A stretch of DNA of 37,798 nt from a virus: UHGV virus genome UHGV-1315295; one strand, given 5' to 3'. Made by a program: the position numbers and the translations under genes. Position 1 is the first letter of the stretch, and each line of letters starts with the position of its first letter. Of the stretch, positions 1,363 through 34,466 are shown one piece after another. Under the pieces are notes generated by a model. It had not been told where the DNA came from, made no database searches, and saw only the letters and a program-made list of their open reading frames with translations.

Positions 1363-4300
1363 ATGGTCAGTCAAACCAATGAACAAGCATTAGAGTCGGC
1401 CATTGAGAAATGTCTGGCTGGGATCAGTACTGAAGAGCTCAAAGAGGGGCTGAGTCAGCAGTCACTGGGTGCTGGATACTTCATTGGTGCTGCTAGTGAC
1501 TTTAATATGCAATATGCCATTGATGAACGTTTTTTCTGGCAATTTCTGCAAAAGACACAAGAAGTAGAGTTGGCCAAACTGCAAAAGAACAACCCCTCAG
1601 ATTGGCAACGTAAGTTACTCGAACGATTTGACCGACTGATTAAGAAGCATGGCATTCTTCATTTACTTAAGAAAGGGCTAAGCGTAGACGATGCTCATTT
1701 CAATTTGCTCTATCCAGCCCCTTTGGCAAGTAGTAGTGAGAAGGTAAAGCAAAACTTTGCAGATAACGTGTTTAGTTGTACTCGCCAAGTGCGCTATTCC
1801 ATGGTAAATCCCCTACAAGAAATCGACATGGTATTGTTTATCAACGGAATACCCTTGATAACGCTGGAGTTGAAGAACGCATGGACCGGGCAAACAGCAC
1901 GTTATCACGGCCAAAAGCAGTATCGAGATGATCGGGATGCAACTCAGCCATTGCTGACCTTTGGCCGCTGCCTAGTGCATATGGCGGTCGATACCGACGA
2001 AGTGTATATGACCACCAAGTTATCAGGTAGCAGTACATTCTTCTTGCCGTTCAATAAAGGTCACAATCTTGGACAAGGCAACCCGCCGAATCCATCTGGC
2101 CATAAAACGGCATACCTATGGCAAGAAGTATTCACTAAAGACAGCTTGGCGAATATTATTCAGCATTTTGTGCGTCTGGATGGGTCAAGCAAAGATCCAT
2201 TACCCAAGCGAACCCTGTTCTTTCCTCGATACCATCAATTGGATGTGGTGAGAAAATTAGTAGACCATGCCGCCCAGCACGGTGTCGGTCAGACTTACTT
2301 AATTCAACACTCAGCCGGTTCAGGTAAGTCTAACTCGATTACCTGGGCAGCTTATCAGCTAATTGAAACCTATCCTGCTTCGTCTGATGTGGCAGGCGGA
2401 AAAAGCTTGGAGCAGCCGTTGTTTGACTCTGTGATTGTGGTCACCGATAGACGCCTATTGGACAAGCAGCTGCGGGATAACATTAAAGAGTTTTCTGAAG
2501 TAAAGAACATTATTGCCCCAGCGAATAAGTCTTCTGAGCTTAAGCAGGCGCTGGAGAATGGCAAAAAGATTATTATAACGACGATTCAGAAATTCCCGTT
2601 CATTATTGATGGTATCGCCGATCTTAGTGACAAGCGCTTTGCAGTGATCATCGATGAAGCACACAGCTCACAGTCTGGTTCGGCGCATGACAATATGAAC
2701 CGAGCGATGGGCAAGTCTGAAGTCGAAGAGGCAGAAGATGCTCAGGATAAAATCCTTCAGGCGATGAGATCGCGTAAGATGCGCGGGAATGCGTCGTACC
2801 TGGCATTTACAGCGACACCAAAAAACAGCACTTTGGAGAAATTTGGTCAACGCCAAGAAGATGGCTCTTACAAGCCGTTTCACTTGTATTCGATGAAACA
2901 AGCCATTGAAGAAGGCTTCATCTTGGATGTGCTGGCAAATTATACGACGTACAAAAGTTATTATGAGATTGAGAAATCAATTGCTGATAACCCTGAGTTT
3001 GATACCAAAAAGGCGCAGAAAAAACTCAGAGCTTATGTAGAACGAAGCCAGCAAACAATTGATATCAAGGCAGAGATTATGCTGGAGCATTTTGTTCCGC
3101 ATGTCGTGAATACGAAAAAGCTCAAAGGTAAAGGTAAAGGAATGGTGGTCACTCAAAATATTGAGGCGGCCATTCGATACTACAAAGCGATAAGGCGAAT
3201 ACTTGAGGAGCAAGGAAACCCGTTTAAAGTTGCCATTGCTTTCTCAGGAACCAAAGAAGTTGATGGTATTGAATATACCGAAGCAGATATTAATGGTTTT
3301 GCCGAGTCAGATACCAAAGATATGTTTGATACCGATGAGTATCGACTTTTAGTGGTTGCTAACAAGTATCTGACTGGGTTTGACCAGCCTAAGCTTTGCG
3401 CCATGTATGTAGATAAGAAGCTCGCCAGTGTCTTGTGTGTTCAGGCGCTATCTAGGCTCAATCGCAGTGCACCTAAGCTAGGGAAGAAAACAGAAGACTT
3501 GTTTATCCTGGATTTTTTCAACTCGGTTGAAGATATTCAATCAGCATTCGATCCTTTCTATACAGCAACGTCATTGTCCCAAGCTACAGATATAAACGTA
3601 CTGCACGAGTTGAAAGATGAAATGGACGATGTCGGTGTGTACGAGTGGTATGAAGTTGAAGACTTTGTGACGCGTTATTTCAAGAATGAAGACGCCCAAA
3701 CACTCAGTCCAATCATTGATATTGCCGCAGCGCGGTTTGACCATGAACTAGATCTTGAAGCTGAAGCTAAAGTGGACTTTAAGATTAAAGCCAAACAGTT
3801 CGTTAAAATCTATGGGCAGATGGCTTCTATCATGCCTTATGAAATGGTCAGCTGGGAAAAACTGTTTTGGTTCCTGAAGTTTTTAATACCGAAATTGAAA
3901 GTGGAAGATCCCGATGCTAATGCTATTGATGAGCTTCTCGATTCTGTCGATCTGAGTTCATACGGTTTGCAACGTGTGAAGCTTAACCACAGCATTAAAC
4001 TTAGTGACCAAGAAGCGGAGCTTGATCCTCAAAATCCGAACCCACGTGGGGTGCATGGCGGTGAAAAAGAAACTGACCCGCTGGATGAAATCATTCGCAC
4101 ATTTAATGAGCGATGGTTCCAGGGCTGGAGTGCCACACCTGAAGAGCAAAAGGTTAAGTTCGTGAACATCGCTGAAAGTATCCGCAATCACCCTGACTTC
4201 GAATCGAAATACAAAAACAACCCAGATCCCCATAATCGAAATTTGGCCTTCGAAAAAATGCTCAAGGAAATCATGCTGCAACGCCGTAAAGATGAACTTG

Positions 4301-4380
4301 AGCTCTACAAGTTGTTCGCAGGAGATTCAGCATTTAAAGCCTCGTGGACGCAAAGTATGCAACGAATGGTGGGTAGGTAG
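1363..4380 (+). CDS. hsdR: Type I restriction enzyme R subunit (HsdR), DEAH-box helicase/nuclease
   Basis: 1005 aa; N-terminal nuclease motif [18 protein letters not shown]; Walker A GSGKSNS; DEAH box IIDEAHSS; size and order typical of HsdR. Confidence 0.9.
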
Positions 4381-5080: not shown

Positions 5081-5260
5081 CCACTTCATCTACACTCGCG
5101 GCATTGGAAGCAAAGATATGGTCGTCTGGCACCTGATGCACATTGATAAGGCTATCAACCACACGCTGGAGAAGTTCTTTCCACCAGCCTGAACACAATG
5201 ATTGTGCGCCTTATAGCGCCCATTAAGATAGATAAGTACTTACCAATAAGGAGAAAACAC

Positions 5261-5536: not shown

Positions 5537-5751
5537 TATTTACAGCAAAAATATATAAGTTAGCATTTACCTATCATTAAAATTTTATTAGATATCACGT
5601 TACTTATTACCTCGATAGCCTTTGTGCTCGACTGCATCTTCACAGGGGCAATCCGTAAAGCGCTGGCGCCTGTTAATGATGTGATGATCAATGCGCTGGC
5701 CGTAGTACTGGTCTTCGACTCAGCATTAGGCGTTTTCAAAGGAGTCGTGGC

Positions 5752-9392: not shown

Positions 9393-9788
9393 AGGCAAAC
9401 TCATGCTTTTTACCGGGCATAAAATATGGTGTCTTAGAAAGACACTGAGAGCTTTAGGGATTAATGCATGAGTGAATTTTATTCAAGAGCAGAAACTGTG
9501 GCCGACGGATGCGTTTGAAGACGACGCACGCAAACGCCGTAGATGTCATCTCACAACTTCACCGTCCGTTCTCCTTTTTCATTTCTTGTCATCAGTAAAT
9601 GACTGCTCTCATAAAATTGCTTGTGACGTTTAGAAATCGTTGCTGCCCTATCTGATAGGTATTTACTTACTTATTTTTTTGTCATTATCATGTGCCTTTA
9701 TATTCTTTTGTGTTCCGTGTTGTCTGGGTTGTATGCCTCTTATGCACGCTTAGAATTTGTATCAAAATAACCACAAAGGAAAAGACAC

Positions 9789-13020: not shown

Positions 13021-13756
13021 CTTGAGCCGCACGCAGTTTTTGCAGATGTTTGCCGTGATGCAGTCTATAAAGCTGATAAACAACCATACAGCAAAAGTAA
13101 CTCCGCCTGCACTTTTGTGGAAAAACGTAAACATCAGCGACGACCAGTTCTCGGTATTAACTAATCTATTGTCATCGACTCCTTTGATGCCGAGCTTGGC
13201 TAATCTGCCGTCAGGAAGCACTGCGCCGATCCTTATTAATCCATTTACGGAAGGTGGATATCTCCCACATTCTGGGCCGGGGTTCGTTGTGATTCCTGAA
13301 ACCGGAACGCTGAACATCCAAGAAAATGCACTCTTCAATGCAATGGAGACGCACATCAGCACCGCATTCACTAATCTAATTCGACACGCTAACGCACGCG
13401 CGGATCACGTTGCAATGCCGGGTGCTGCCTTCGCCAGCTTCTCTGTTGACTATGACCGGCACGCGCCAATTTCAAAGCGGGCGAAACTCTGCTTTTACGA
13501 GGAGGGATGTGAAGTAGCGATTATTGAAGTTCTCCTCCCCCACGTATTCAACGCGAATGAAAAGGCTGCGTGCCAACTTATTGACATCATGCGGCATTTC
13601 ATCGGCCAGAGCATGATCGATGCAGACATTGCTGCAGGCGTTCTGATCAACGATAGCATTCACGTTGTTAGCGACATTCCGAAGCCGCCAACTCGCGAGC
13701 CGGAGAAGACACTTGAACAGAAACTAATGGAATGCCCAACCTGGGCTACGTGGTAA
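13010..13756 (+). CDS. Hypothetical protein (248 aa)
   Basis: ORF track; GAGGGG RBS; start overlaps the sbcC stop. Confidence 0.5.
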   Translation: MSFNLSRTQFLQMFAVMQSIKLINNHTAKVTPPALLWKNVNISDDQFSVLTNLLSSTPLMPSLANLPSGSTAPILINPFTEGGYLPHSGPGFVVIPETGTLNIQENALFNAMETHISTAFTNLIRHANARADHVAMPGAAFASFSVDYDRHAPISKRAKLCFYEEGCEVAIIEVLLPHVFNANEKAACQLIDIMRHFIGQSMIDADIAAGVLINDSIHVVSDIPKPPTREPEKTLEQKLMECPTWATW

Positions 13757-13767
13757 GGAGACCAAAA

Positions 13768-14508
13768 GTGAGAGGAAGAGCGACAAAATTAAGAAAAGAT
13801 GCGAAACCTATCAATCCCGACGATTTCGACGGAAATTTCATTAGAGAGTTGGAGCCAATATTTGATTCAAGGGGGCGTAAACGCCGAATTGTTGAGCTTG
13901 AATGCTTTATCTGCGGTCATCGATTCTCTGCAAACCTTGAGAACGCGAAGCGAGTCAGACAGAAGACCTGCTCAAACAAATGTGCCGGAATATATCGCCA
14001 GAACGCAGAATATAAAGTCATGGAAAACCCTCTGTACTGGACTTGGGCAAGTATGAAGGCGCGTTGTAACAATCCAAATCGGGCAAGATACGAAAAGTAT
14101 GGAGGACGGGGAATATCTTACGCCATCGGGTTCGAGGATTTTGATAATTTTTACAGGTATGTTTCCGTACTTGAGGGCTATCCGTTTTCCGATACGGAGA
14201 GAGTTGTAGAGGGGGTTACGCTTGATCGCATCGACTCCAGCAAGGGATATGAACCAGGGAATCTGAGGTGGGCTGACAAGCACGTCCAGAGTGCAAATAA
14301 ACAAGGGAAAGTGGATGGTAGTACGTCGAAGTTTACTGGCGTTCATTACTGCAAAACGAACAAGGTTTGGGTTGCTAGAGTTGTGTGGAAAGGAGAGTGT
14401 GTCTTCTTGTATCAATGTCACGATGAATTGGAGGCTTACTTAGCGCGTAAGCGATTTATCGAAGAGCACAATCTACCGCATTTTGTTGAAATGGAGGTCA
14501 CAGAGTGA
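13768..14508 (+). CDS. HNH homing endonuclease with AP2-like C-terminal DNA-binding domain
   Basis: HNH-type block VTLDRIDSSKGYEPGNLRWADKHVQSANK; C-terminal GVHYCKTNKVWVARVVWKGE resembles AP2 domains of phage HNH endonucleases; GTG 13768 has a consensus AAGGAG 7 nt upstream (track start 13732 is an alternative). Confidence 0.55.
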   Translation: MRGRATKLRKDAKPINPDDFDGNFIRELEPIFDSRGRKRRIVELECFICGHRFSANLENAKRVRQKTCSNKCAGIYRQNAEYKVMENPLYWTWASMKARCNNPNRARYEKYGGRGISYAIGFEDFDNFYRYVSVLEGYPFSDTERVVEGVTLDRIDSSKGYEPGNLRWADKHVQSANKQGKVDGSTSKFTGVHYCKTNKVWVARVVWKGECVFLYQCHDELEAYLARKRFIEEHNLPHFVEMEVTE

Positions 14509-15074: not shown

Positions 15075-15112
15075 GTTGATAATTGATAGGTAAGTGCTTA
15101 TCTATTACCATG

Positions 15113-15138
15113 AGGCCACTATATATAGTGGTCTTTTT
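15113..15138 (+). terminator. Rho-independent terminator
   Basis: AGGCCACTAT-atat-ATAGTGGTCT hairpin followed by TTTTT. Confidence 0.55.
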
Positions 15139-15339
15139 AATTGGGCTACACATAATAAGCATCGTAAAACGTAACGCCCACCGAGCCGCTGCCAGCTGCA
15201 TGAAGCGCTGACAAAGTTCGCTGTCGATTGCACTGGCCCGAGCCAGTTCGAATACCTCTAAGCCGAGTTTAACCACTTTGTGGCCTGGCGCTGCTGGGTC
15301 AAAATTGGCGTATCAAAAGAAGTCTAAAGGAAAGAAAAC

Positions 15340-16218
15340 ATGAAATTTACGAAACTGACCGATCATCTGAAACTTGCCGCAGACAAACTCGTGGGGTTTA
15401 AACCAGAGCCTTACGAGTTGAATCCCGGTTTCGGCAAGACAACGGAAAGCATCTACCTGATGGTTGACCAGTTCCACACACTGTTTCAGCACCCACGCCG
15501 TGCCATTCCAGATCCGGCATTACTGCGTCTGCGTGCCAAGCTGATCCACGAAGAAGCAGTTACCGAGGGCATCCCGGCAGCCAAAAATGGGGATATGACG
15601 GCACTGCTGGACGCGATGGCTGACTTCCTTTACGTGGGCGTCGGCACAATGGTGGCCATCAAAGGCGGCATCTCGACGGGCATGAGTTACTACACCCAAG
15701 AGCAGAGTGTTGATCGCTTCATCCACACCATCATGGTTCCGGGCAACACGGTCTTTGACGATATGGCTATCCCGTTTGAAGAAGCAAAAGAAGCTGCATT
15801 AATGCTGAATGCGCTGGCTGACAAACTTGAAGCGAAGCCGATAAGCGATTCCGAATTGGTGCAGGAGCTGCGCCGCGTGATGAACAAAATCTACGTTGCC
15901 TGCATGATGACCTACCGTCTGGCTGATTTTCTCGGAATCGATATTGTTGAGCTGGTGGCAGAAATCCACCGTTCCAACATGACCAAGCTGTGGCCGGCTG
16001 ACGCCGAAGAGCGTCGTGTGGCGGTAGAGAATTGCAAATATGACAAGGAAGACCTGGGCTTCCGCCATGCTGAAGGGACTGACATGATGATCGGTTTCAG
16101 GGTTTCTGATGGCAAGATCCTCAAATCTCCCACCTACAGCGATGTGGATCTGACTTGCTTTGTTGAGAAGGCGAAGTCCTCATCTCTTTACGAGATGGTA
16201 AAAAATAATTGTAAGTGA
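15340..16218 (+). CDS. MazG-like nucleoside triphosphate pyrophosphohydrolase (putative)
   Basis: HEEAVTEG...LLDAMADFLYVGVG resembles the MazG/HisE EExxE...D motif; a second related half follows; nucleotide-metabolism context. Confidence 0.4.
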   Translation: MKFTKLTDHLKLAADKLVGFKPEPYELNPGFGKTTESIYLMVDQFHTLFQHPRRAIPDPALLRLRAKLIHEEAVTEGIPAAKNGDMTALLDAMADFLYVGVGTMVAIKGGISTGMSYYTQEQSVDRFIHTIMVPGNTVFDDMAIPFEEAKEAALMLNALADKLEAKPISDSELVQELRRVMNKIYVACMMTYRLADFLGIDIVELVAEIHRSNMTKLWPADAEERRVAVENCKYDKEDLGFRHAEGTDMMIGFRVSDGKILKSPTYSDVDLTCFVEKAKSSSLYEMVKNNCK

Positions 16219-16280
16219 GTACTTATCATTATATATTGCCTTGGCGTGTTTTATTGTCCAAGTTCTTAATTGCTCATTGC

Positions 16281-16310
16281 AATGGTGGCCGAAGAGCCAC
16301 CATTTTTTTT
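16281..16310 (+). terminator. Rho-independent terminator
   Basis: AATGGTGGC-cgaagag-GCCACCATT followed by TTTTTTTT. Confidence 0.65.
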
Positions 16311-16385
16311 ACTCCCCTCCTAGCCTTACACACTTCTGACAGATAAACTTGTATAAAATAATAGGTATGTAATTACTTATCTTGT

Positions 16386-17501
16386 GTGAGGTTGATTTTG
16401 TCTATCCTACTGAATCGAGACTTTACGAACGGTCAGTTTGCCAGTGGTTCGTATGCCAAAGTGGTTGAAACGGTGCTCAACACTGGCGTTCACGCGGGTG
16501 ATCGCACCGGAACCGGCACAAAAAGTGTTTCATATGTCCCTTCCTACTACATGCTGACGGGCGGATCTGTTCCACTTATCTCCGGAAAAGCCGTCAATCT
16601 GAAGCCGTTACTGGTTGAGCTGGAGTGGTATCTCAAAGGAACAGGCAACATCCAGTTCCTGAAAGACAATGGCGTCAAAATCTGGGATGTCTGGGCCGAT
16701 GAAAATGGCGATTTAGGCCCGGTCTATGGCAAGCAATGGCGTCGGTGGGAAGACACTCGCATCGTGAGCCATAGCGAGTATCTGCGCAAAATCGACACGT
16801 TCCGTGAGCGCGGGTACAAGGTCGAGGGGTATCTGGGCGTAAGTGAAGATCGCGTTGTGTTGTCCCGTGAAATTGACCAGCTACAGCGTATCGTTGACAC
16901 GCTTCGCACCAACCCTACAGATCGTCGCATCCTGCTGAATGCCTGGAATGTTGGCGAACTGGAAGATATGAAGCTGCCGCCATGCCATTTCGTGTTTTCA
17001 CTGTGGAGTCGCGAGCTGGACTTTGAGACCCGACTGACTATGGCCACCGACATTGGCATACAGCACAACCGCCACGGCCACGAGTCCATTTACACCCAGA
17101 TGCTGTGTCTTCTGGAAAGAGATGGCGGCATTACTGAGAACATGCTGGACGAGCTGGGCATCCCGAAACGCATTCTGAACTCATGCCTGGTTCAACGCAG
17201 TGTCGATACCTTTGTTGGTATGCCGTTCAACATCGCCGGTTACGGCATTCTCACCCACTTCCTCGCGAAGATCACCGGCCACATGGCTGGCGCATTCGTG
17301 CATTTTGGCTTTGACGTTCATCTCTACGACAACCACATGGAAGGCGTTGAGGAACTGATGAAGCGCGAGCCGCCCAAAGAGTCCGACCCGGTTGTCATCT
17401 TCCCGCATGAATGGGCCGAACTGGACGACTTCAAATGGGAAGGTGTGCAGGTGTGCGGCTACAGCCCTCTTCCGTGGATCAAGGTTCCAGTGGCGGTGTG
17501 A
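16386..17501 (+). CDS. thyA: Thymidylate synthase (ThyA) with internal insertions
   Basis: DRTGTGT, IWDVWADENGDLGPVYGKQWR, LPPCH, GMPFNIAGYGILTH and C-terminal IKVPVAV blocks; 371 aa, longer than bacterial ThyA; true start uncertain (GTG 16386 or TTG 16398). Confidence 0.85.
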   Translation: MRLILSILLNRDFTNGQFASGSYAKVVETVLNTGVHAGDRTGTGTKSVSYVPSYYMLTGGSVPLISGKAVNLKPLLVELEWYLKGTGNIQFLKDNGVKIWDVWADENGDLGPVYGKQWRRWEDTRIVSHSEYLRKIDTFRERGYKVEGYLGVSEDRVVLSREIDQLQRIVDTLRTNPTDRRILLNAWNVGELEDMKLPPCHFVFSLWSRELDFETRLTMATDIGIQHNRHGHESIYTQMLCLLERDGGITENMLDELGIPKRILNSCLVQRSVDTFVGMPFNIAGYGILTHFLAKITGHMAGAFVHFGFDVHLYDNHMEGVEELMKREPPKESDPVVIFPHEWAELDDFKWEGVQVCGYSPLPWIKVPVAV

Positions 17502-17503
17502 TA

Positions 17504-17916
17504 TGGCCAGAGGGATGTATGTGTTGTGTGAAATTGAAGGTGTGCTGGCGAGAGCCAGCCATCGCAAAGCAGTGCCTGATGCGGATGCAGGCGCTCTTAT
17601 TGCCGGTGATGAACTCATCTTTCCCACCAGCCGCATGTTGCGTGGTTTTGCTCGCTCCGGTGCTGAAGTGGTGCTTATCAGTAGTCGTCCGGAAGCGCTC
17701 GAAGGCCCAACCAAGCGCTGGCTGAAGGACTTCGGCATTGATTATGACTGGCTCCACCTGGTTCCGCGCGGTGTCAGTTTTGAAACCCATATCAAGCGCA
17801 CGCTGGCAGAGCACAAAGGCGACTTACTTATCGCCGCACTGGTTCATGATCCGCGTCTGCGTTCTGCGCTGGCAGATTCTCACCAGCGACCAACCATCTA
17901 TGAGGTAAGCCAATGA
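17504..17916 (+). CDS. HAD-like hydrolase, putative nucleotidase, with non-canonical first motif
   Basis: YVLCEIEGVL (ExExGVL in place of DxDxT), VVLISSRPE, K...GDLLIAALVHD resemble HAD motifs I-IV; ATG 3 nt after the thyA stop. Confidence 0.35.
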
Positions 17917-18389
17917 AGATGATTGCAGCTGTCGGCCGCAACTATGAAATCGGCATTGGCAACGAACTTCCCTGGCGTTGCCCGACCGATCTGAAACTGT
18001 TCAAACAACTCACCAAAAACGCCACTGTCGTGATGGGACGTAAGACGATGGAAAGTCTTAAACGCCCGCTGCCAGAGCGCCATAACCTCGTTTTGACGCG
18101 CTCTCGTGGCTATATCCCCAATGGTTTCTACCCCGCTGGCATCGATGACGTTTTAAAACTACCAGATCCGGTCTGGGTGATTGGTGGCGGACAGATTTAC
18201 TCGCTCTTTATGCCACACGTTGAAGAGATCTGGCTGTCGCATATTGGCGTGGATGTGTCGGGCGCGGATGCGTTCTTCCCGGCGCCAATGATGCGTTCTT
18301 TAGGGTTCGTACCAGTAGAAACGGCTTATACCCAACGTGCAAATGAGGATGAGCCTGGCTTTTTGCAGATCGTATACAGAAGGTCGTAA
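17913..18389 (+). CDS. folA: Dihydrofolate reductase
   Basis: MKMIAAVGRNYEIGIGNELPWR...VVMGRKTMESLKRPLPERHNLVLTR...VIGGGQIY matches the DHFR fold signature; ATGA overlap with the upstream gene. Confidence 0.85.
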   Translation: MKMIAAVGRNYEIGIGNELPWRCPTDLKLFKQLTKNATVVMGRKTMESLKRPLPERHNLVLTRSRGYIPNGFYPAGIDDVLKLPDPVWVIGGGQIYSLFMPHVEEIWLSHIGVDVSGADAFFPAPMMRSLGFVPVETAYTQRANEDEPGFLQIVYRRS

Positions 18390-19060
18390 TGGATTACCGG
18401 ATTGGAATCACTGGCGCACAGGGCAGTGGGAAAACAACCCTGGCAAGGTACATCGATGCGCACTATGGCATTCCGTATGTGGATGCTGGTGTAGGCAAGC
18501 TGATGAGCAGTCTGGGGGTGAAGGTTGGCGAGCGTTTGCCCCTTTACGAGCGTCTTCAGGTTCAGATGGAGATTGCCAGACACATCGAGATGATCACCCG
18601 CGGCGTTGAAGGTTTTGTCATCGACCGCACGCCAGCCGATGTCATGGCTTATACGCTTGACCTGGTCGGCCAGACCAACGAAGACCGCTGCATCGAGCTG
18701 GCTCTCGACATTGAGCAGTTTTGCCACAAAGCGGCCATTTCCAACTTTAATGCTATAGCGGGTCTTCGCCCGGGCGTTGAGCTTTCCAGCAAAGATCTCG
18801 CGCGTCCCCAGCGAGGATCGCTTGACCGTCTCTATGTTGCTCGCATCGATGCACTTATGTGTGGCGAGCTGACGAAAATTAGCGCCCTTCCCCATACCGG
18901 CGATTTGCAGGTTTTCATTATCTCTGAAAAGTGCCGCACGGTTGAGGCGCGAGCCAGATCGGTATTGCGTGTGCTGGAAAGAGCCACTGAAAACATCGAG
19001 AGCCGTATAACAGGACGAGTGACCTTCCACAGAATGTTGTTCCCCTGTTGGGCAGTGTGA
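18389..19060 (+). CDS. P-loop NTPase, putative nucleoside/nucleotide kinase
   Basis: Walker A ITGAQGSGKTTLA at the N-terminus; TAATG overlap with folA; nucleotide-metabolism operon context. Confidence 0.5.
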   Translation: MDYRIGITGAQGSGKTTLARYIDAHYGIPYVDAGVGKLMSSLGVKVGERLPLYERLQVQMEIARHIEMITRGVEGFVIDRTPADVMAYTLDLVGQTNEDRCIELALDIEQFCHKAAISNFNAIAGLRPGVELSSKDLARPQRGSLDRLYVARIDALMCGELTKISALPHTGDLQVFIISEKCRTVEARARSVLRVLERATENIESRITGRVTFHRMLFPCWAV

Positions 19061-19096
19061 CAATAAGACACGCGAAATGAATTGAGGAAAAACAGA

Positions 19097-19516
19097 ATGA
19101 TAGATGAACTTCCCCTGTCGGATGAATTAGATCGCAAAGCGATTGAAGCACTGATCCGTATTGCTGACGAACAATCCCGTTCCTTAATGAGTGAACGTGA
19201 AGCACGTCTGGCTATCCGAGCAGTGTTTGAGTCCGTTCAAGGTCTTGTTGGGGAAGAGGTTGGTGAAGCCATTAATGCGGCGATGTCGCAATTCAATGGC
19301 GGCACCAAGCGCTCTCTGTTTCCTATGCATCTCAAACTCTTGGGCGGTACGGTTTTGTATGTGTCCGTTTGCCTGGAGACTAACCAAATCCAGCTCCTCA
19401 ACACGTCAACGGGCGAATGGCGTGAGCCGGTCGTCTGCGAAAGCGGCGAGGACGCACTAAAAAAGGCTGCTCAGTTTGTGCGTGGCGCACTGCTGAAAGG
19501 CGCGAAGAAGCTGTAA
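19097..19516 (+). CDS. Hypothetical protein (139 aa)
   Basis: ATG 19097 with GAGGA RBS 8 nt upstream, in frame with the track ORF. Confidence 0.45.
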   Translation: MIDELPLSDELDRKAIEALIRIADEQSRSLMSEREARLAIRAVFESVQGLVGEEVGEAINAAMSQFNGGTKRSLFPMHLKLLGGTVLYVSVCLETNQIQLLNTSTGEWREPVVCESGEDALKKAAQFVRGALLKGAKKL

Positions 19517-19525
19517 GGAGTACCA

Positions 19526-20080
19526 ATGACCACGATTATCGGTGGCGTCGATATTGAGTCCACGGGGCTGGACTTCACATCCGGCCACAAAATTATCGAA
19601 ATCGCGATATCTCGTTATGAACTGGAAACCCAGAAGCGCATTGACAGCCTTGAGATGCGCTTCAACCCGCGTCGTAGCATCGATCCGAAGGCGCAGGCTG
19701 TACATGGTATCTCTCTGGAAGAACTGGCTGCTGAACCGCTGTTGGCTGATCACGCAGGTAAGATTGCTGCATATATGGGGGCATGTAGCGCGTTAGTCGC
19801 CCATAACGGGGAGGCTTTTGACCTTCCGTTCATTCGCCACGAGTTCGGAAGCTATGGAGTGAAATTGCCAGAAATCCCTCTGGTTGACACTCTATTTTCC
19901 CTGTGGGCTACCGAGGATGGGAAGCGCCCACGCCTGGAAGAGCTGGCATTCTCACTTGGGTTCACTTACGACCGTGAGAAAGCCCACAGTGCTCTCTACG
20001 ATACTGATCTGATGATGCAGTGTTTCTTCAAAGCCCGAGAGAAATACGGCTTCTTCAAACTCCCATTCGAAAGCGCCTGA
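19526..20080 (+). CDS. DnaQ-like 3'-5' exonuclease (DEDDh family)
   Basis: Exo I GVDIESTGL, Exo II AHNGEAFDLPF, Exo III HSALYDTD. Confidence 0.75.
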   Translation: MTTIIGGVDIESTGLDFTSGHKIIEIAISRYELETQKRIDSLEMRFNPRRSIDPKAQAVHGISLEELAAEPLLADHAGKIAAYMGACSALVAHNGEAFDLPFIRHEFGSYGVKLPEIPLVDTLFSLWATEDGKRPRLEELAFSLGFTYDREKAHSALYDTDLMMQCFFKAREKYGFFKLPFESA

Positions 20081-21204: not shown

Positions 21205-21224
21205 ATAGGTAAGTATTTACCTAT
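21205..21224. promoter_or_regulatory. Palindrome ATAGGTAAGTATTTACCTAT (family 1) 12 nt upstream of the Dam-like gene start
   Basis: Near-perfect 20-bp palindrome; one of about 10 family members. Confidence 0.4.
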
Positions 21225-22032: not shown

Positions 22033-22263
22033 ATGGTATACCCGACGAACGTCGTAGCGCTCGTTGAGAGCGATTTTCTGGCCACAGTGCGCGACATGAT
22101 GAAAGATCGCGATAAGGCTTTCAGTCTCTACGAATGGTCGCTCAAATGTCTTCATTCAGGCGAGCACAAAGAGCTGGTGGAGCAGCTGTTAGGGGAACTC
22201 ATCAATGAGGTGTTTGCCCTGAACGTCCAGCTTCATGGGCGAGAAATTAATCAATCAATATAA
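22033..22263 (+). CDS. Hypothetical small protein (76 aa)
   Basis: ATG 22033 with AAGGA RBS. Confidence 0.45.
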   Translation: MVYPTNVVALVESDFLATVRDMMKDRDKAFSLYEWSLKCLHSGEHKELVEQLLGELINEVFALNVQLHGREINQSI

Positions 22264-22280
22264 TAGGTAAGTACTTACCA

Positions 22281-22309
22281 TTCAAAACGCCACTAACCAG
22301 TGATACAAT
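22281..22309 (+). promoter_or_regulatory. Candidate sigma70 promoter with extended -10: TTCAAA - 17 bp - TGaTACAAT
   Basis: -35 TTCAAA 22281-22286, TG 22301-22302, -10 TACAAT 22304-22309; reads into a 540-bp region with no credible ORF. Confidence 0.45.
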
Positions 22310-22856: not shown

Positions 22857-23465
22857 ATGACGACCAAGAACCCAGTCCGGCAACGCACTGGCTGCCGCAC
22901 GAAGTCTAAAGCCAGATGCCAAACCCACCAGCATTCCCGTACCAATTTCAACACACCCGTAGTCGAGTTCAATCCCCAGCTCAAAACCGTAAAAGTATTC
23001 AGTGATGGCTCCTGCCTCAAAAATCCGGGCGGGCCGGGCGGTTACGGCATCGTTCTCCAGTATCGAGGCGAAGAGCGCGAGCTTTCTGAGGGCTTCCACA
23101 GCACGACCAACAATCGGATGGAGATGATGGGCGCCCTGATTGCGCTGGAGCGTCTGAAGTACCCCTGCAACGTGATCCTGCATTCCGACAGCCAGTATCT
23201 TAAAAACGGCATGACGCTCTGGATGAAAGGCTGGAAGCGTAACGGATGGATCACGTCTGAGAAGAAGCCAGTCAAAAACGTGGATCTCTGGAAACGTCTC
23301 GACGCGGCCGCCAGTCGTCATAATGTCCGCTGGAAGTGGGTTAAAGGCCATGCAGGTCATCGCGAGAACGAAATGTGTGACCGTCTGGCGAAGATCGCCG
23401 CCTATTCCGCAGCTGATATGCCTCACAAGCATGATATTGGGTTTTTGTCACAAAAAGATAAGTAA
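22857..23465 (+). CDS. rnhA: Ribonuclease HI with a ~45-aa basic N-terminal extension
   Basis: [20 protein letters not shown]...[16 protein letters not shown]...HSDSQY...[20 protein letters not shown] matches RNase HI throughout; GGAG RBS before ATG 22857. Confidence 0.8.
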
Positions 23466-23607
23466 GTATTTACCTACTATAATAAATCAGGTATCTTATA
23501 AATCGTCAGGATGACGAAGTACCGGTTAGGTACGGTTCCAGGATGGAACGCCAAAAGGCGGCTGGCCAAGCCAGCCGCAACTCTTTCTGACACTGAATGG
23601 AATCCAC

Positions 23608-26049: not shown

Positions 26050-27735
26050 ATGAATACAGCCCTTTCCATCATTGACGCTTTCACCCCAAACACTGATATC
26101 GACTACCGGCAGGAAATGAACGTCATTCACGAAATAGTGGTCGAGTGCGAGAAAGAGATCGCATTCATGCATCAGGTTCACGACTTCGTTTATGGCGACG
26201 AACGCCACAGCATGATTAACCGCTTGCTGCGGCTCAATCACCGGCCGGACGACGAGCGCACACGCTTTAACAGAACCTGGCTGGACAAAGTCGACCTGGA
26301 ATGGGTGAAACAAAATATCTGGGCCGAGTACTGGAAGAAGGTCACGGATATGACCAACGTTCTGCTGATCATGCCAGCATCCCGCCGCGACGAGTGGCGT
26401 GAACAGTTTATCGAGGGCAAGCAGGAAACGATCAAGACTGACAGAACTGGCTATCAGATGAAGGTTAAAGAGTTCGTTGGTGTACCTGAGTTCAAAGCAG
26501 AAACGGTCATACCAACGATGCTTAATTTGCTGAATGACAGGCACAAATATCTCTCTGAGCGCGTGTATGGCTTGTTTAAGGCGTTGAGTCCTGCTCACAA
26601 GACCAATAAAACGAACGGCTTCAGCGAACGTCTGATCATCGCCGACTGCATTTCCGATTTCTGGCGGGACAGCGTCAGCGTTAACTACCGGAAAGAGGAT
26701 TACATAGACGACCTGCGCGTCATGTTGCATTTCTTTGCACACAAAGAATTTATCACCATCAACCGCACGGCCGAGATGCTGTCAGCTGCGTATCGAGCAA
26801 ATGACTGCCAGACCGGCGACTGGATGAATGTCGACGGAAATCTGATGCGTGTGAAGATGTTTAAGAACGGCAACGTTCACTTTGAAATACATCCTGACGT
26901 AGCCTGGAAGCTGAATGAGGTGCTGGCTTACAGTATGCCCGCTGCAATTCCGGCTCCATGTCGTACTGCGCCCAAAACACGGGCACCAAAACAGTTCGGG
27001 TTAATCCAGAAGACGATCTCCGAGCCGGTGCGTACTGCGCTTCGCGACGGGCGATCTGGCAATGACAAACGCGTATGGTACTTCTCTGATTCCGGTCTCC
27101 AGAAGTCACAGGTGGAAGAGCTGGAGCGTACACTGAGCTTTATTGGCGGCGTGCAGGAGAACAAGCACTGGCAGTTCCCGTATGAGATCGGCCATACGCT
27201 CAATACGATTGTGGCCACCGGCTTAATACCGGATACAAAATCACACCAGTTCTACCCTACTCCGCGTTTGATAGCGGAGTACGTTGCCAGAGCCATCGAG
27301 CTGAAGCCAGGTGAGAAGCTGCTGGAGCCTGAAGCCGGGCGCGGAGATCTGCTGGCCTGCATCGACGCCAATCCGGAAGACGTTACCTGCATAGAAGTCG
27401 CACCTCTCTTCGCTGATATCCTGCTTGGCAAGGGGTACACAAATACGGTCTGCTGCGACTTCATGAAGTGGTCTGAGGACAACGCAGGTTATCAGTTCGA
27501 CAAAATCGTCATGAACCCGCCCTACTCTCTTGGCCGTCACAGAGAGCATACGCTGGCCGCGCTGGAGCATCTTAAAGTCGGCGGGCGACTGGTGGCTGTA
27601 CTGCCGGGTGATGCGCCAGTTCTGAACTGGATGTCGCTGGATAATTACGTTTATGCCAAAGGGAAGTCGTTTACTGACGAGTTTGAAGACACCGGGATTA
27701 CTGTCAGCGTATACGTTTTTAAACGCGTTAAATGA
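26050..27735 (+). CDS. DNA methyltransferase fusion protein: ~380-aa N-terminal domain of unknown function plus C-terminal N6-adenine methyltransferase domain
   Basis: C-terminal QFYPTPRLIAEYVA (motif X-like), LEPEAGRGDLL (AdoMet motif I-like), IVMNPPYS (motif IV); N-terminal 380 aa has no motif I recognise. Confidence 0.65.
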   Translation: MNTALSIIDAFTPNTDIDYRQEMNVIHEIVVECEKEIAFMHQVHDFVYGDERHSMINRLLRLNHRPDDERTRFNRTWLDKVDLEWVKQNIWAEYWKKVTDMTNVLLIMPASRRDEWREQFIEGKQETIKTDRTGYQMKVKEFVGVPEFKAETVIPTMLNLLNDRHKYLSERVYGLFKALSPAHKTNKTNGFSERLIIADCISDFWRDSVSVNYRKEDYIDDLRVMLHFFAHKEFITINRTAEMLSAAYRANDCQTGDWMNVDGNLMRVKMFKNGNVHFEIHPDVAWKLNEVLAYSMPAAIPAPCRTAPKTRAPKQFGLIQKTISEPVRTALRDGRSGNDKRVWYFSDSGLQKSQVEELERTLSFIGGVQENKHWQFPYEIGHTLNTIVATGLIPDTKSHQFYPTPRLIAEYVARAIELKPGEKLLEPEAGRGDLLACIDANPEDVTCIEVAPLFADILLGKGYTNTVCCDFMKWSEDNAGYQFDKIVMNPPYSLGRHREHTLAALEHLKVGGRLVAVLPGDAPVLNWMSLDNYVYAKGKSFTDEFEDTGITVSVYVFKRVK

Positions 27736-27755
27736 TAGGTAAGTACTTACCTAAT
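27735..27755. promoter_or_regulatory. Palindrome TAGGTAAGTACTTACCTA (family 1) overlapping the methyltransferase-fusion stop codon
   Basis: Perfect 18-bp palindrome. Confidence 0.4.
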
Positions 27756-34407: not shown

Positions 34408-34466
34408 GTATTGTAAGTACTTACTTATGATAATAAAATTAAAAATTAAACACTAAGGAGAGTGAA

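Follow-up and report, generated by a model that had tools for sequence, protein, structure and literature searches.

A probable deoxythymidylate-supply module with a degenerate HAD-fold protein in an SSU5/pHCM2-type phage-plasmid

The virus genome UHGV-1315295, analysed here over its full length of 37,798 nucleotides (the window), carries between positions 15,340 and 19,060 five consecutive genes that encode a MazG-like protein, a thymidylate synthase (ThyA), a HAD-like protein, a dihydrofolate reductase (DHFR) and a P-loop kinase-fold protein. A preliminary description made from the sequence alone had read them as a nucleotide-metabolism operon, and all five are indeed present as + strand open reading frames (ORFs) at the positions given there, apart from a slip of one nucleotide at the start of the HAD-like gene. 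The window is 97.9% identical in nucleotide sequence to Salmonella phage SSU5 and 99.7% identical to the Escherichia coli plasmid pTB212, which has an IncFIB replicon. It matches 707 plasmids in PLSDB, and among 5426 complete E. coli genomes the element turned up in 231, where it is nearly always plasmid-borne. Other genes of the window, including those for a Rep3-type initiator, an SbcCD-like pair, Dam, a Rha-type regulator and a type I restriction R-like protein, also fit a phage-plasmid. We consider it very probable that the region is a conserved deoxythymidylate-supply module of an SSU5/pHCM2-type phage-plasmid. The gene block is already annotated in RefSeq, where the DHFR gene of the E. 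coli set is labelled dfrA51 and the small ORF is sometimes called a 'HAD family hydrolase'; the module is thus ordinary phage nucleotide metabolism, known from phage-plasmids of this type, and not new.

Genes and transcription units of the block

The same gene set in the same order, with the terminator and palindromic sites described below, is shared with SSU5 (genes SSU5_080-086) and with IncFIB(pHCM2)-type phage-plasmids. At a greater distance, the order nrdAB-MazG-thyA-HAD-DHFR-AAA_28-hypothetical-RNaseT is retained even where the HAD-like proteins of the relatives share only 25-40% identity. The HAD-like gene lies directly after thyA in all five relatives examined, and DHFR comes next in four of the five. 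The arrangement in one relative (locus L008, 3005-6052), MazG-thyA-HAD-AAA_28, has a HAD gene with the canonical DxD motif and lacks the DHFR gene, suggesting that the insertion of DHFR and the degeneration of the HAD-like protein were later events within the lineage.

The MazG-like gene (15340-16218, + strand) encodes a 292-residue protein of the all-alpha nucleoside triphosphate (NTP) pyrophosphohydrolase type. It matches Pfam PRA-PH of the PF01503 clan (3.6e-9; 37.4 bits against a cut-off of 21.3) and phrog_671 (8e-46), and its relatives retain the metal-binding motifs EEx(2-3)E and DxxD, which read EEA(V)TE and DAMAD. Its match in the Protein Data Bank (PDB) to DR2231 of Deinococcus, a protein with deoxyuridine triphosphatase (dUTPase) activity, is weak (E=1e-3) and falls into two aligned pieces that flank an insertion of about 70 residues between the core helices. 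The metal-binding helices and a C-terminal HRSNxxK segment align between the two proteins, whereas the window protein is twice as long, owing to this insertion and an N-terminal extension. To judge from family and motifs, the MazG-like protein is probably a pyrophosphatase acting on deoxyuridine triphosphate (dUTP) or other deoxynucleoside triphosphates (dNTPs) and yielding deoxyuridine monophosphate (dUMP).

The second gene, thyA (16386-17501, + strand), encodes a long phage-type thymidylate synthase of 371 residues if translation starts at GTG 16386, or 367 if it starts at TTG 16398, the start chosen in RefSeq. The protein scores 264.5 bits against Pfam PF00303 (Thymidylat_synt; cut-off 24.3; 1.1e-78) and 219.9 against the TIGR03284 equivalog (cut-off 108.35), and matches ThyA in the PDB at 4.9e-64. 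It aligns to E. coli ThyA as three blocks (query residues 22-122, 161-207 and 265-371), separated by an insertion of about 38 residues (residues ~123-160, encoded at 16752-16865) at E. coli positions 103-107 and another of about 56 residues (residues ~209-264, encoded at 17010-17177) in the turn at E. coli positions 155-160; an N-terminal extension of at most 19 residues depends on the choice of start codon. The preliminary description had attributed the unusual length of this enzyme to insertions while allowing that they might be artefacts of the reading frame. The insertions are real and not frame artefacts, for five related loci with identities as low as 49% share both of them. In phage T4 and other phages with a thyA-folA tandem, ThyA likewise has insertions at its surface that the host enzyme lacks, although those of the window protein are much larger. 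No catalytic or substrate residue has been lost; the conserved positions include R21, E58, W80/W83, Y94, R126-R127, C146-H147, R166, D169, N177, H207 and Y209; the PCH catalytic Cys and the C-terminal closure segment are kept, and the dUMP-selecting residue at 177 is Asn rather than Asp. On these grounds we take ThyA to be a functional thymidylate synthase that belongs to a long, phage-type subfamily.

The HAD-like gene that follows (17503-17916, + strand; 137 residues) is treated in its own section below. The fourth gene (17913-18389, + strand) encodes a trimethoprim-insensitive dihydrofolate reductase of 158 residues that scores 357.6 bits against NCBIfam NF047324 (cut-off 322) and 121.4 bits against Pfam DHFR_1, and bears the RefSeq label dfrA51. 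It is identical at 156 of 158 positions to the DHFR of SSU5, which is the dfrA51 reference, the only differences being K82R and S116P, and it keeps A6, I13, D26 and S48, the four residues that were mutated in a study of the SSU5 enzyme and reported there to bear on resistance (PMC12217456). By profile and residue identity the window DHFR is DfrA51, which the preliminary description had missed.

The last of the five genes (18389-19060, + strand) encodes a P-loop kinase-fold protein of 223 residues that matches AAA_28 (38.7 bits) and phrog_2107 'thymidylate kinase' (8e-10). Its Walker A motif GAQGSGKT, a DRTP motif and the LID arginines R139 and R142 show little or no variation. A structural model (mean predicted local distance difference test, pLDDT, 82.8) finds vaccinia thymidylate kinase (TMPK), Drosophila deoxynucleoside kinase (dNK) and Giardia deoxyadenosine kinase (dAK) as its best Foldseek matches, with template modelling (TM) scores of 0.55-0.60; T4 Pnk and Pnkp1 are outside the top 50 structural matches, though both are in the library. 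A kinase acting on deoxythymidine monophosphate (dTMP) or on a deoxynucleoside is the most economical reading, in which we have moderate confidence. The window protein ends differently from that of SSU5 and pTB212: where their gene has a TGA stop, the window has AGA (19031-19033), which adds nine residues (RMLFPCWAV) that occur in no homologue and are modelled at a pLDDT below 50.

From thyA onwards the genes are tightly packed. The thyA stop is separated by a single nucleotide from the start of the HAD-like gene (TGA-T-ATG, with ATG at 17503), the HAD-like and DHFR genes overlap by four nucleotides (ATGA at 17913), and the DHFR and P-loop genes overlap by one (TAATG at 18389). The two overlaps had been described correctly, whereas the first junction had been placed at ATG 17504, three nucleotides after the stop. 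These junctions, which run from -4 to +1 nucleotides in the window, range from -13 to +12 in homologous modules whose proteins are 25-57% identical. After the kinase gene come a conserved hypothetical protein of the phrog_5373 family (19082-19516, + strand), which is separated by 21 nucleotides and takes up this place in all related loci, and, nine nucleotides further on, a DnaQ/RNase T-type 3'-5' exonuclease (19526-20080, + strand), the last gene of the conserved run. No convincing terminator was seen downstream of the kinase gene before 20080. The tight unit thus appears to extend at least from thyA to the kinase gene, and probably on to 20080.

The idea of a single translationally coupled operon of five genes does not hold for the MazG-like gene, which is set apart from thyA by a gap of 167 nucleotides containing an intrinsic terminator (16281-16312, + strand) with a 9-bp G+C-rich stem, a 6-nucleotide loop and a run of eight T (folding energy -15.7 kcal/mol, z = -3.7). 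A hairpin followed by a T-run lies at the equivalent place in four related loci (L001, L002, L004 and L006), and the sequences differ; a position kept despite such divergence argues for a working terminator. As far as these sequence features indicate, the MazG-like gene is the end of a preceding, separate transcription unit.

Two copies of a recurring palindrome accompany the block. One (ATAGGTAAGTGCTTATCTAT, 15086-15105) lies upstream of the MazG-like gene, an equivalent site being found upstream of nrdA in SSU5, and the other (ATAGGTATGTAATTACTTAT, 16361-16380) lies 6-18 nucleotides upstream of the thyA start, depending on the start codon, and is a candidate operator or promoter-associated site. 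They belong to a family of about 11 sites of 20 bp in the window (consensus ATAGGTAAGTACTTACCTAT), nearly all intergenic and often 6-45 nucleotides 5' of a + strand start codon; the remaining copies lie at 5228-5247, 5555-5574, 9655-9674, 16211-16230, 21205-21224, 22263-22282, 23458-23477, 27735-27754 and 34409-34428. A pattern scan of the window gave 20 matches against 0.6 expected, and scoring with the consensus gave 12 raw matches against 1.4 in shuffled sequence; a scan with the pattern GATAAGTANNNTACTTATC, which was in the wrong register, had given no matches, and it was the corrected pattern and the consensus that found the family. The sites are kept in SSU5 and pTB212, and related motifs lie 5' of thyA in three further loci (L001, L006 and L012). 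Judged by their distribution, the palindromes look like a dispersed set of operators or promoter-associated sites; no description of them was found in the literature on SSU5 and pHCM2, which was covered in part. Right after the copy at 15086, a terminator-like hairpin with a T-run (15112-15135, + strand) lies upstream of the MazG-like gene.

The HAD-like protein between ThyA and DfrA51

The HAD-like protein belongs to PHROG 5387, a function-unknown family (phrog_5387, 2e-87); it is of PNKP 3'-phosphatase type, but its active site has degenerated. Its nearest sequence match of known structure is Pnkp1 (4xrp, 6.6e-5), and its score against Pfam HAD_PNKP (PF25109), 18.4 bits, is below the gathering cut-off of 27.6. 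Structure prediction, which the preliminary description had proposed as a check, gave an AlphaFold2 (AF2) model (pLDDT 88.4) with the fold of a PNKP phosphatase; in Foldseek it matches 4xrp at a TM score of 0.82 and T4 Pnkp (5uj0) at 0.81, so the HAD fold is not in doubt. The phosphatase domains of Capnocytophaga Pnkp1 and T4 Pnkp thus share the fold and an alignable motif I context with the window protein, in which, by contrast, both aspartates of motif I are Glu, motif IV is lost and no kinase domain is fused.

These differences are characteristic of a clade. Searching 1.8 billion representatives with a profile brought up 172 relatives, and a census of motifs was made on the gathered sequences. 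The window protein has VLCEIEGVL at motif I, where relatives have ICDIDGTL and Pnkp1 aligns with VICDLDGTL, which bears out the non-canonical first motif (ExExGVL) noticed earlier. Glu stands at the nucleophile position in 24 sequences from the SSU5 clade and is invariant in the close clade, whereas 125 more distant relatives have the canonical DxD together with DR or DD at motif IV. Motif IV of the window protein is H-D, and the position is variable in the clade (RT, CS, AS and TT). S60 of motif II and K98 of motif III are present and mostly conserved. In three members (P0042, P0043 and P0047, from loci L002, L004 and L010) the nucleophile position is occupied by A, T and G, and motif II has Glu or Asp where the others have Ser; a carboxylate may have been relocated within the former active site of these proteins, or they may reflect one shared ancestral change. 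What the clade has in common instead is a strictly conserved segment, PTSRMLRGFxRSG, together with the motif HPH-(K/R)P at the C terminus.

Such a pattern suggests that the HAD-like protein is probably not a canonical phosphatase, and we concluded from the motif comparison that the clade has abandoned the aspartyl-phosphate mechanism while the protein remains under selection. Where the preliminary description had offered a divergent or an inactive nucleotidase, the divergence of the catalytic motifs stands, and of the two options the inactive one is better supported, the nucleophilic Asp and motif IV both being lost. HAD folds that persist after phosphatase chemistry has weakened or been lost are known from the plant vegetative storage protein and from the LNS2 domain of Nir2. 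Both are among the structural matches of the window protein (4fyp and 9jtz, respectively), although there is no specific sequence relationship, and their ligands (a storage function and phosphatidic acid) are unrelated to nucleotide metabolism.

It is conceivable, though unlikely, that the protein, far from being the product of a decaying gene, has been re-tooled as a part of the thymidylate cycle, either as a non-catalytic adaptor or nucleotide sensor bridging ThyA and DHFR, or as an enzyme with a moved carboxylate (Glu of motif I giving way, in some members, to Asp or Glu at motif II) that bypasses the aspartyl-phosphate intermediate. This suggestion draws on the strict retention of the PTSRMLRGFxRSG helix and of the gene position while the catalytic residues vary. 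If true, an adaptor of this kind would give a three-protein parallel to the DHFR-TS fusion known from protozoa and plants. The idea that the HAD-like protein docks onto the ThyA insertions is not borne out: looser forms of both insertions occur, at the same two sites, in ThyA proteins of 322-354 residues (37-43% identity) from other phage-like contigs, none of which has a HAD-like gene adjacent to thyA. We found no description of the protein in the literature on SSU5 and pHCM2 that was covered. It is a small and well-defined candidate pseudo-enzyme with clean comparative data, and of modest curiosity value.

Thymidylate supply, trimethoprim and rival explanations

Taken together, the family assignments bear out a nucleotide-metabolism module for the supply of dTMP and deoxythymidine triphosphate (dTTP), whose likely workings can be outlined. 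The MazG-like protein, as a DR2231-type pyrophosphohydrolase, would convert dUTP to dUMP and pyrophosphate (PPi), which would also bar uracil from phage DNA; ThyA would methylate dUMP to dTMP with production of dihydrofolate, and DfrA51 would recycle the dihydrofolate to tetrahydrofolate. Onward phosphorylation of dTMP, or of a deoxynucleoside, would fall to the P-loop protein of TMPK/dNK fold. The HAD-like protein would descend from a small phage phosphatase of PNKP type and be kept for a non-canonical role, such as nucleotide binding, protein partnering or altered chemistry. The thyA unit probably has its promoter beside the palindromic site, copies of which stand before many genes of the element; its expression would then accompany phage DNA replication and not be constitutive. 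If the palindromes are a set of operators, the thymidylate unit would be co-regulated with the other replication genes, in keeping with a dfrA51 that stays silent in native carriers. Known parallels are the td-frd genes of phage T4 and other phage thyA-folA tandems, in which ThyA and DHFR are placed together and boost dTMP synthesis at the time of replication (PMC7725336); the window differs from T4 in having a degenerate HAD-fold protein between the two and a kinase-fold protein after them.

The element had been credited with making its own dTMP pool. The aim of supplying dTMP stands, but the claim is weaker for this element than it would be for SSU5. In SSU5 and in distant relatives, nrdA and nrdB sit between the RuvC-like and MazG-like genes, 5' of the latter; in the window they are absent, about 3.3 kb having been deleted so that only short end remnants align within 15075-15339, and pTB212 shares the deleted arrangement. 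Several points weigh against the supply of deoxythymidylate as set out above. With nrdAB missing, the module relies on deoxyribonucleotides supplied by the host. The substrates of the MazG-like protein, ThyA, the HAD-like protein and the kinase are assigned from family or fold only; the match of the P-loop model to TMPK and dNK is moderate at TM scores in the range given, with no match to a thymidylate-kinase family in Pfam or NCBIfam, nor to a dNK family in Pfam, where AAA_28 is the sole match. The invariant Glu at the nucleophile position of the HAD-like protein, and the motif II acid in members without it, could mean a site that is altered but active. Finally, the operator role of the palindromes and the silence of the thyA unit in the plasmid state are both inferences.

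The identity of the DHFR adds a practical dimension, and the literature on trimethoprim resistance of the dfrA51 type is in conflict, with resistance on over-expression set against susceptibility of native carriers. Wang et al. gave the SSU5 protein the name DfrA51 and found that its over-expression raised the minimum inhibitory concentration (MIC) of trimethoprim from 2-4 to 256-512 mg/L; the dissociation constant (Kd) for the drug was 6.4 µM, compared with 0.73 µM for the E. coli enzyme, a roughly 9-fold weaker binding (PMC12217456). A Salmonella isolate carrying dfrA51 alone, on the other hand, had a trimethoprim MIC of 0.25 mg/L (PMC13532270), and Sanchez-Osuna et al. found that the DHFR of an E. 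coli plasmid of the SSU5 clade (AFS59762), which can be likened to the window DHFR by clade only, conferred no resistance (PMC7725336). Its genetic setting suggests that dfrA51 is a phage gene of the replication phase and not an expressed resistance determinant, a reading drawn from the translational linkage to thyA through the HAD-like gene, the conserved terminator and the recurring palindromic site. Expression confined to the replication phase, if such is the case, would explain the discordance between genotype and phenotype. As about 4% of complete E. coli genomes are now credited with dfrA51 as a resistance gene while native carriers can be fully susceptible, this would, if true, call for caution in surveillance scoring.

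The rival explanations differ in what they take the block to be for. That it is mainly antibiotic-resistance cargo, with dfrA51 kept for protection of the host against trimethoprim and the neighbouring genes incidental, is in keeping with the effect of over-expression and the weaker drug binding noted above, and with the classification of dfrA51 as a resistance gene by NCBI. We nevertheless regard it as very unlikely: the place of DHFR after thyA and the HAD-like gene is kept in three of four distant relatives, which are unlikely to have been exposed to a synthetic drug (L008 being the one without DHFR), the gene has no flanking mobile element (PMC12217456), and it lies behind a terminator and a recurring palindrome alongside phage replication genes, quite apart from the susceptible dfrA51-only isolate and the plasmid DHFR that gave no resistance. 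A reading of the block as a defence system was also dropped, a PADLOC scan of six proteins having returned only weak P-loop noise.

Two further alternatives assign the same proteins to other chemistry. The HAD-like and P-loop proteins could together form a split polynucleotide kinase-phosphatase that heals RNA or DNA ends, and would then not be nucleotide-pool enzymes at all; the HAD-like protein is nearest in sequence and structure to the phosphatase domains of Pnkp1 and T4 Pnkp, in L008 a HAD gene with canonical DxD directly abuts the AAA_28 gene, and some phage records label these genes as polynucleotide kinase. The loss of the phosphatase nucleophile and of motif IV in the HAD-like clade, and a kinase model that resembles TMPK, dNK and AK folds rather than Pnk, led us to down-weight this explanation to a highly improbable one; there is, moreover, no ligase nearby, and in all relatives except one the pair is embedded in the run with thyA and DHFR. 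The gene set also resembles that of SPO1-type or thymidine-hypermodifying phages, and could on that analogy with phages containing hydroxymethyluracil (hmU) make a modified thymidine, with ThyA as a dUMP hydroxymethylase, the MazG-like protein as a dTTPase or dUTPase, the HAD-like protein as a dTMPase and the P-loop protein as a kinase for hydroxymethyldeoxyuridine monophosphate (hmdUMP). We rejected this pathway, which we take to be extremely improbable, since ThyA scores above the thymidylate-synthase equivalog cut-off of TIGR03284, its folate and C-terminal segments (IWDxWADENGDLGPVYG and IKVPVAV) are near-identical to those of E. coli ThyA, and a functional DHFR, needed only if dihydrofolate is made, is translationally coupled two genes downstream; the would-be dTMPase lacks the catalytic Asp, and no downstream hypermodification genes were seen.

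Other features of the window

Besides the loss of nrdAB, the window differs from SSU5 by an additional HNH endonuclease ORF (13732-14508, + strand; 258 residues; phrog_374, 1.8e-34), inserted between two genes that are conserved and overlapping both of them. The adjoining RuvC-like gene is 84% identical to that of SSU5, compared with 95-97% elsewhere, and the ORF is probably a homing endonuclease. Near the start of the window, a DUF4268 protein (185-1348, + strand) precedes the type I restriction R-like protein, which has 1005 residues (1363-4380, + strand) and contains R-subunit domains (HSDR_N, SWI2_SNF2/ResIII and T1R_D3-like); together the two genes may give the phage-plasmid a locus for restriction or defence.

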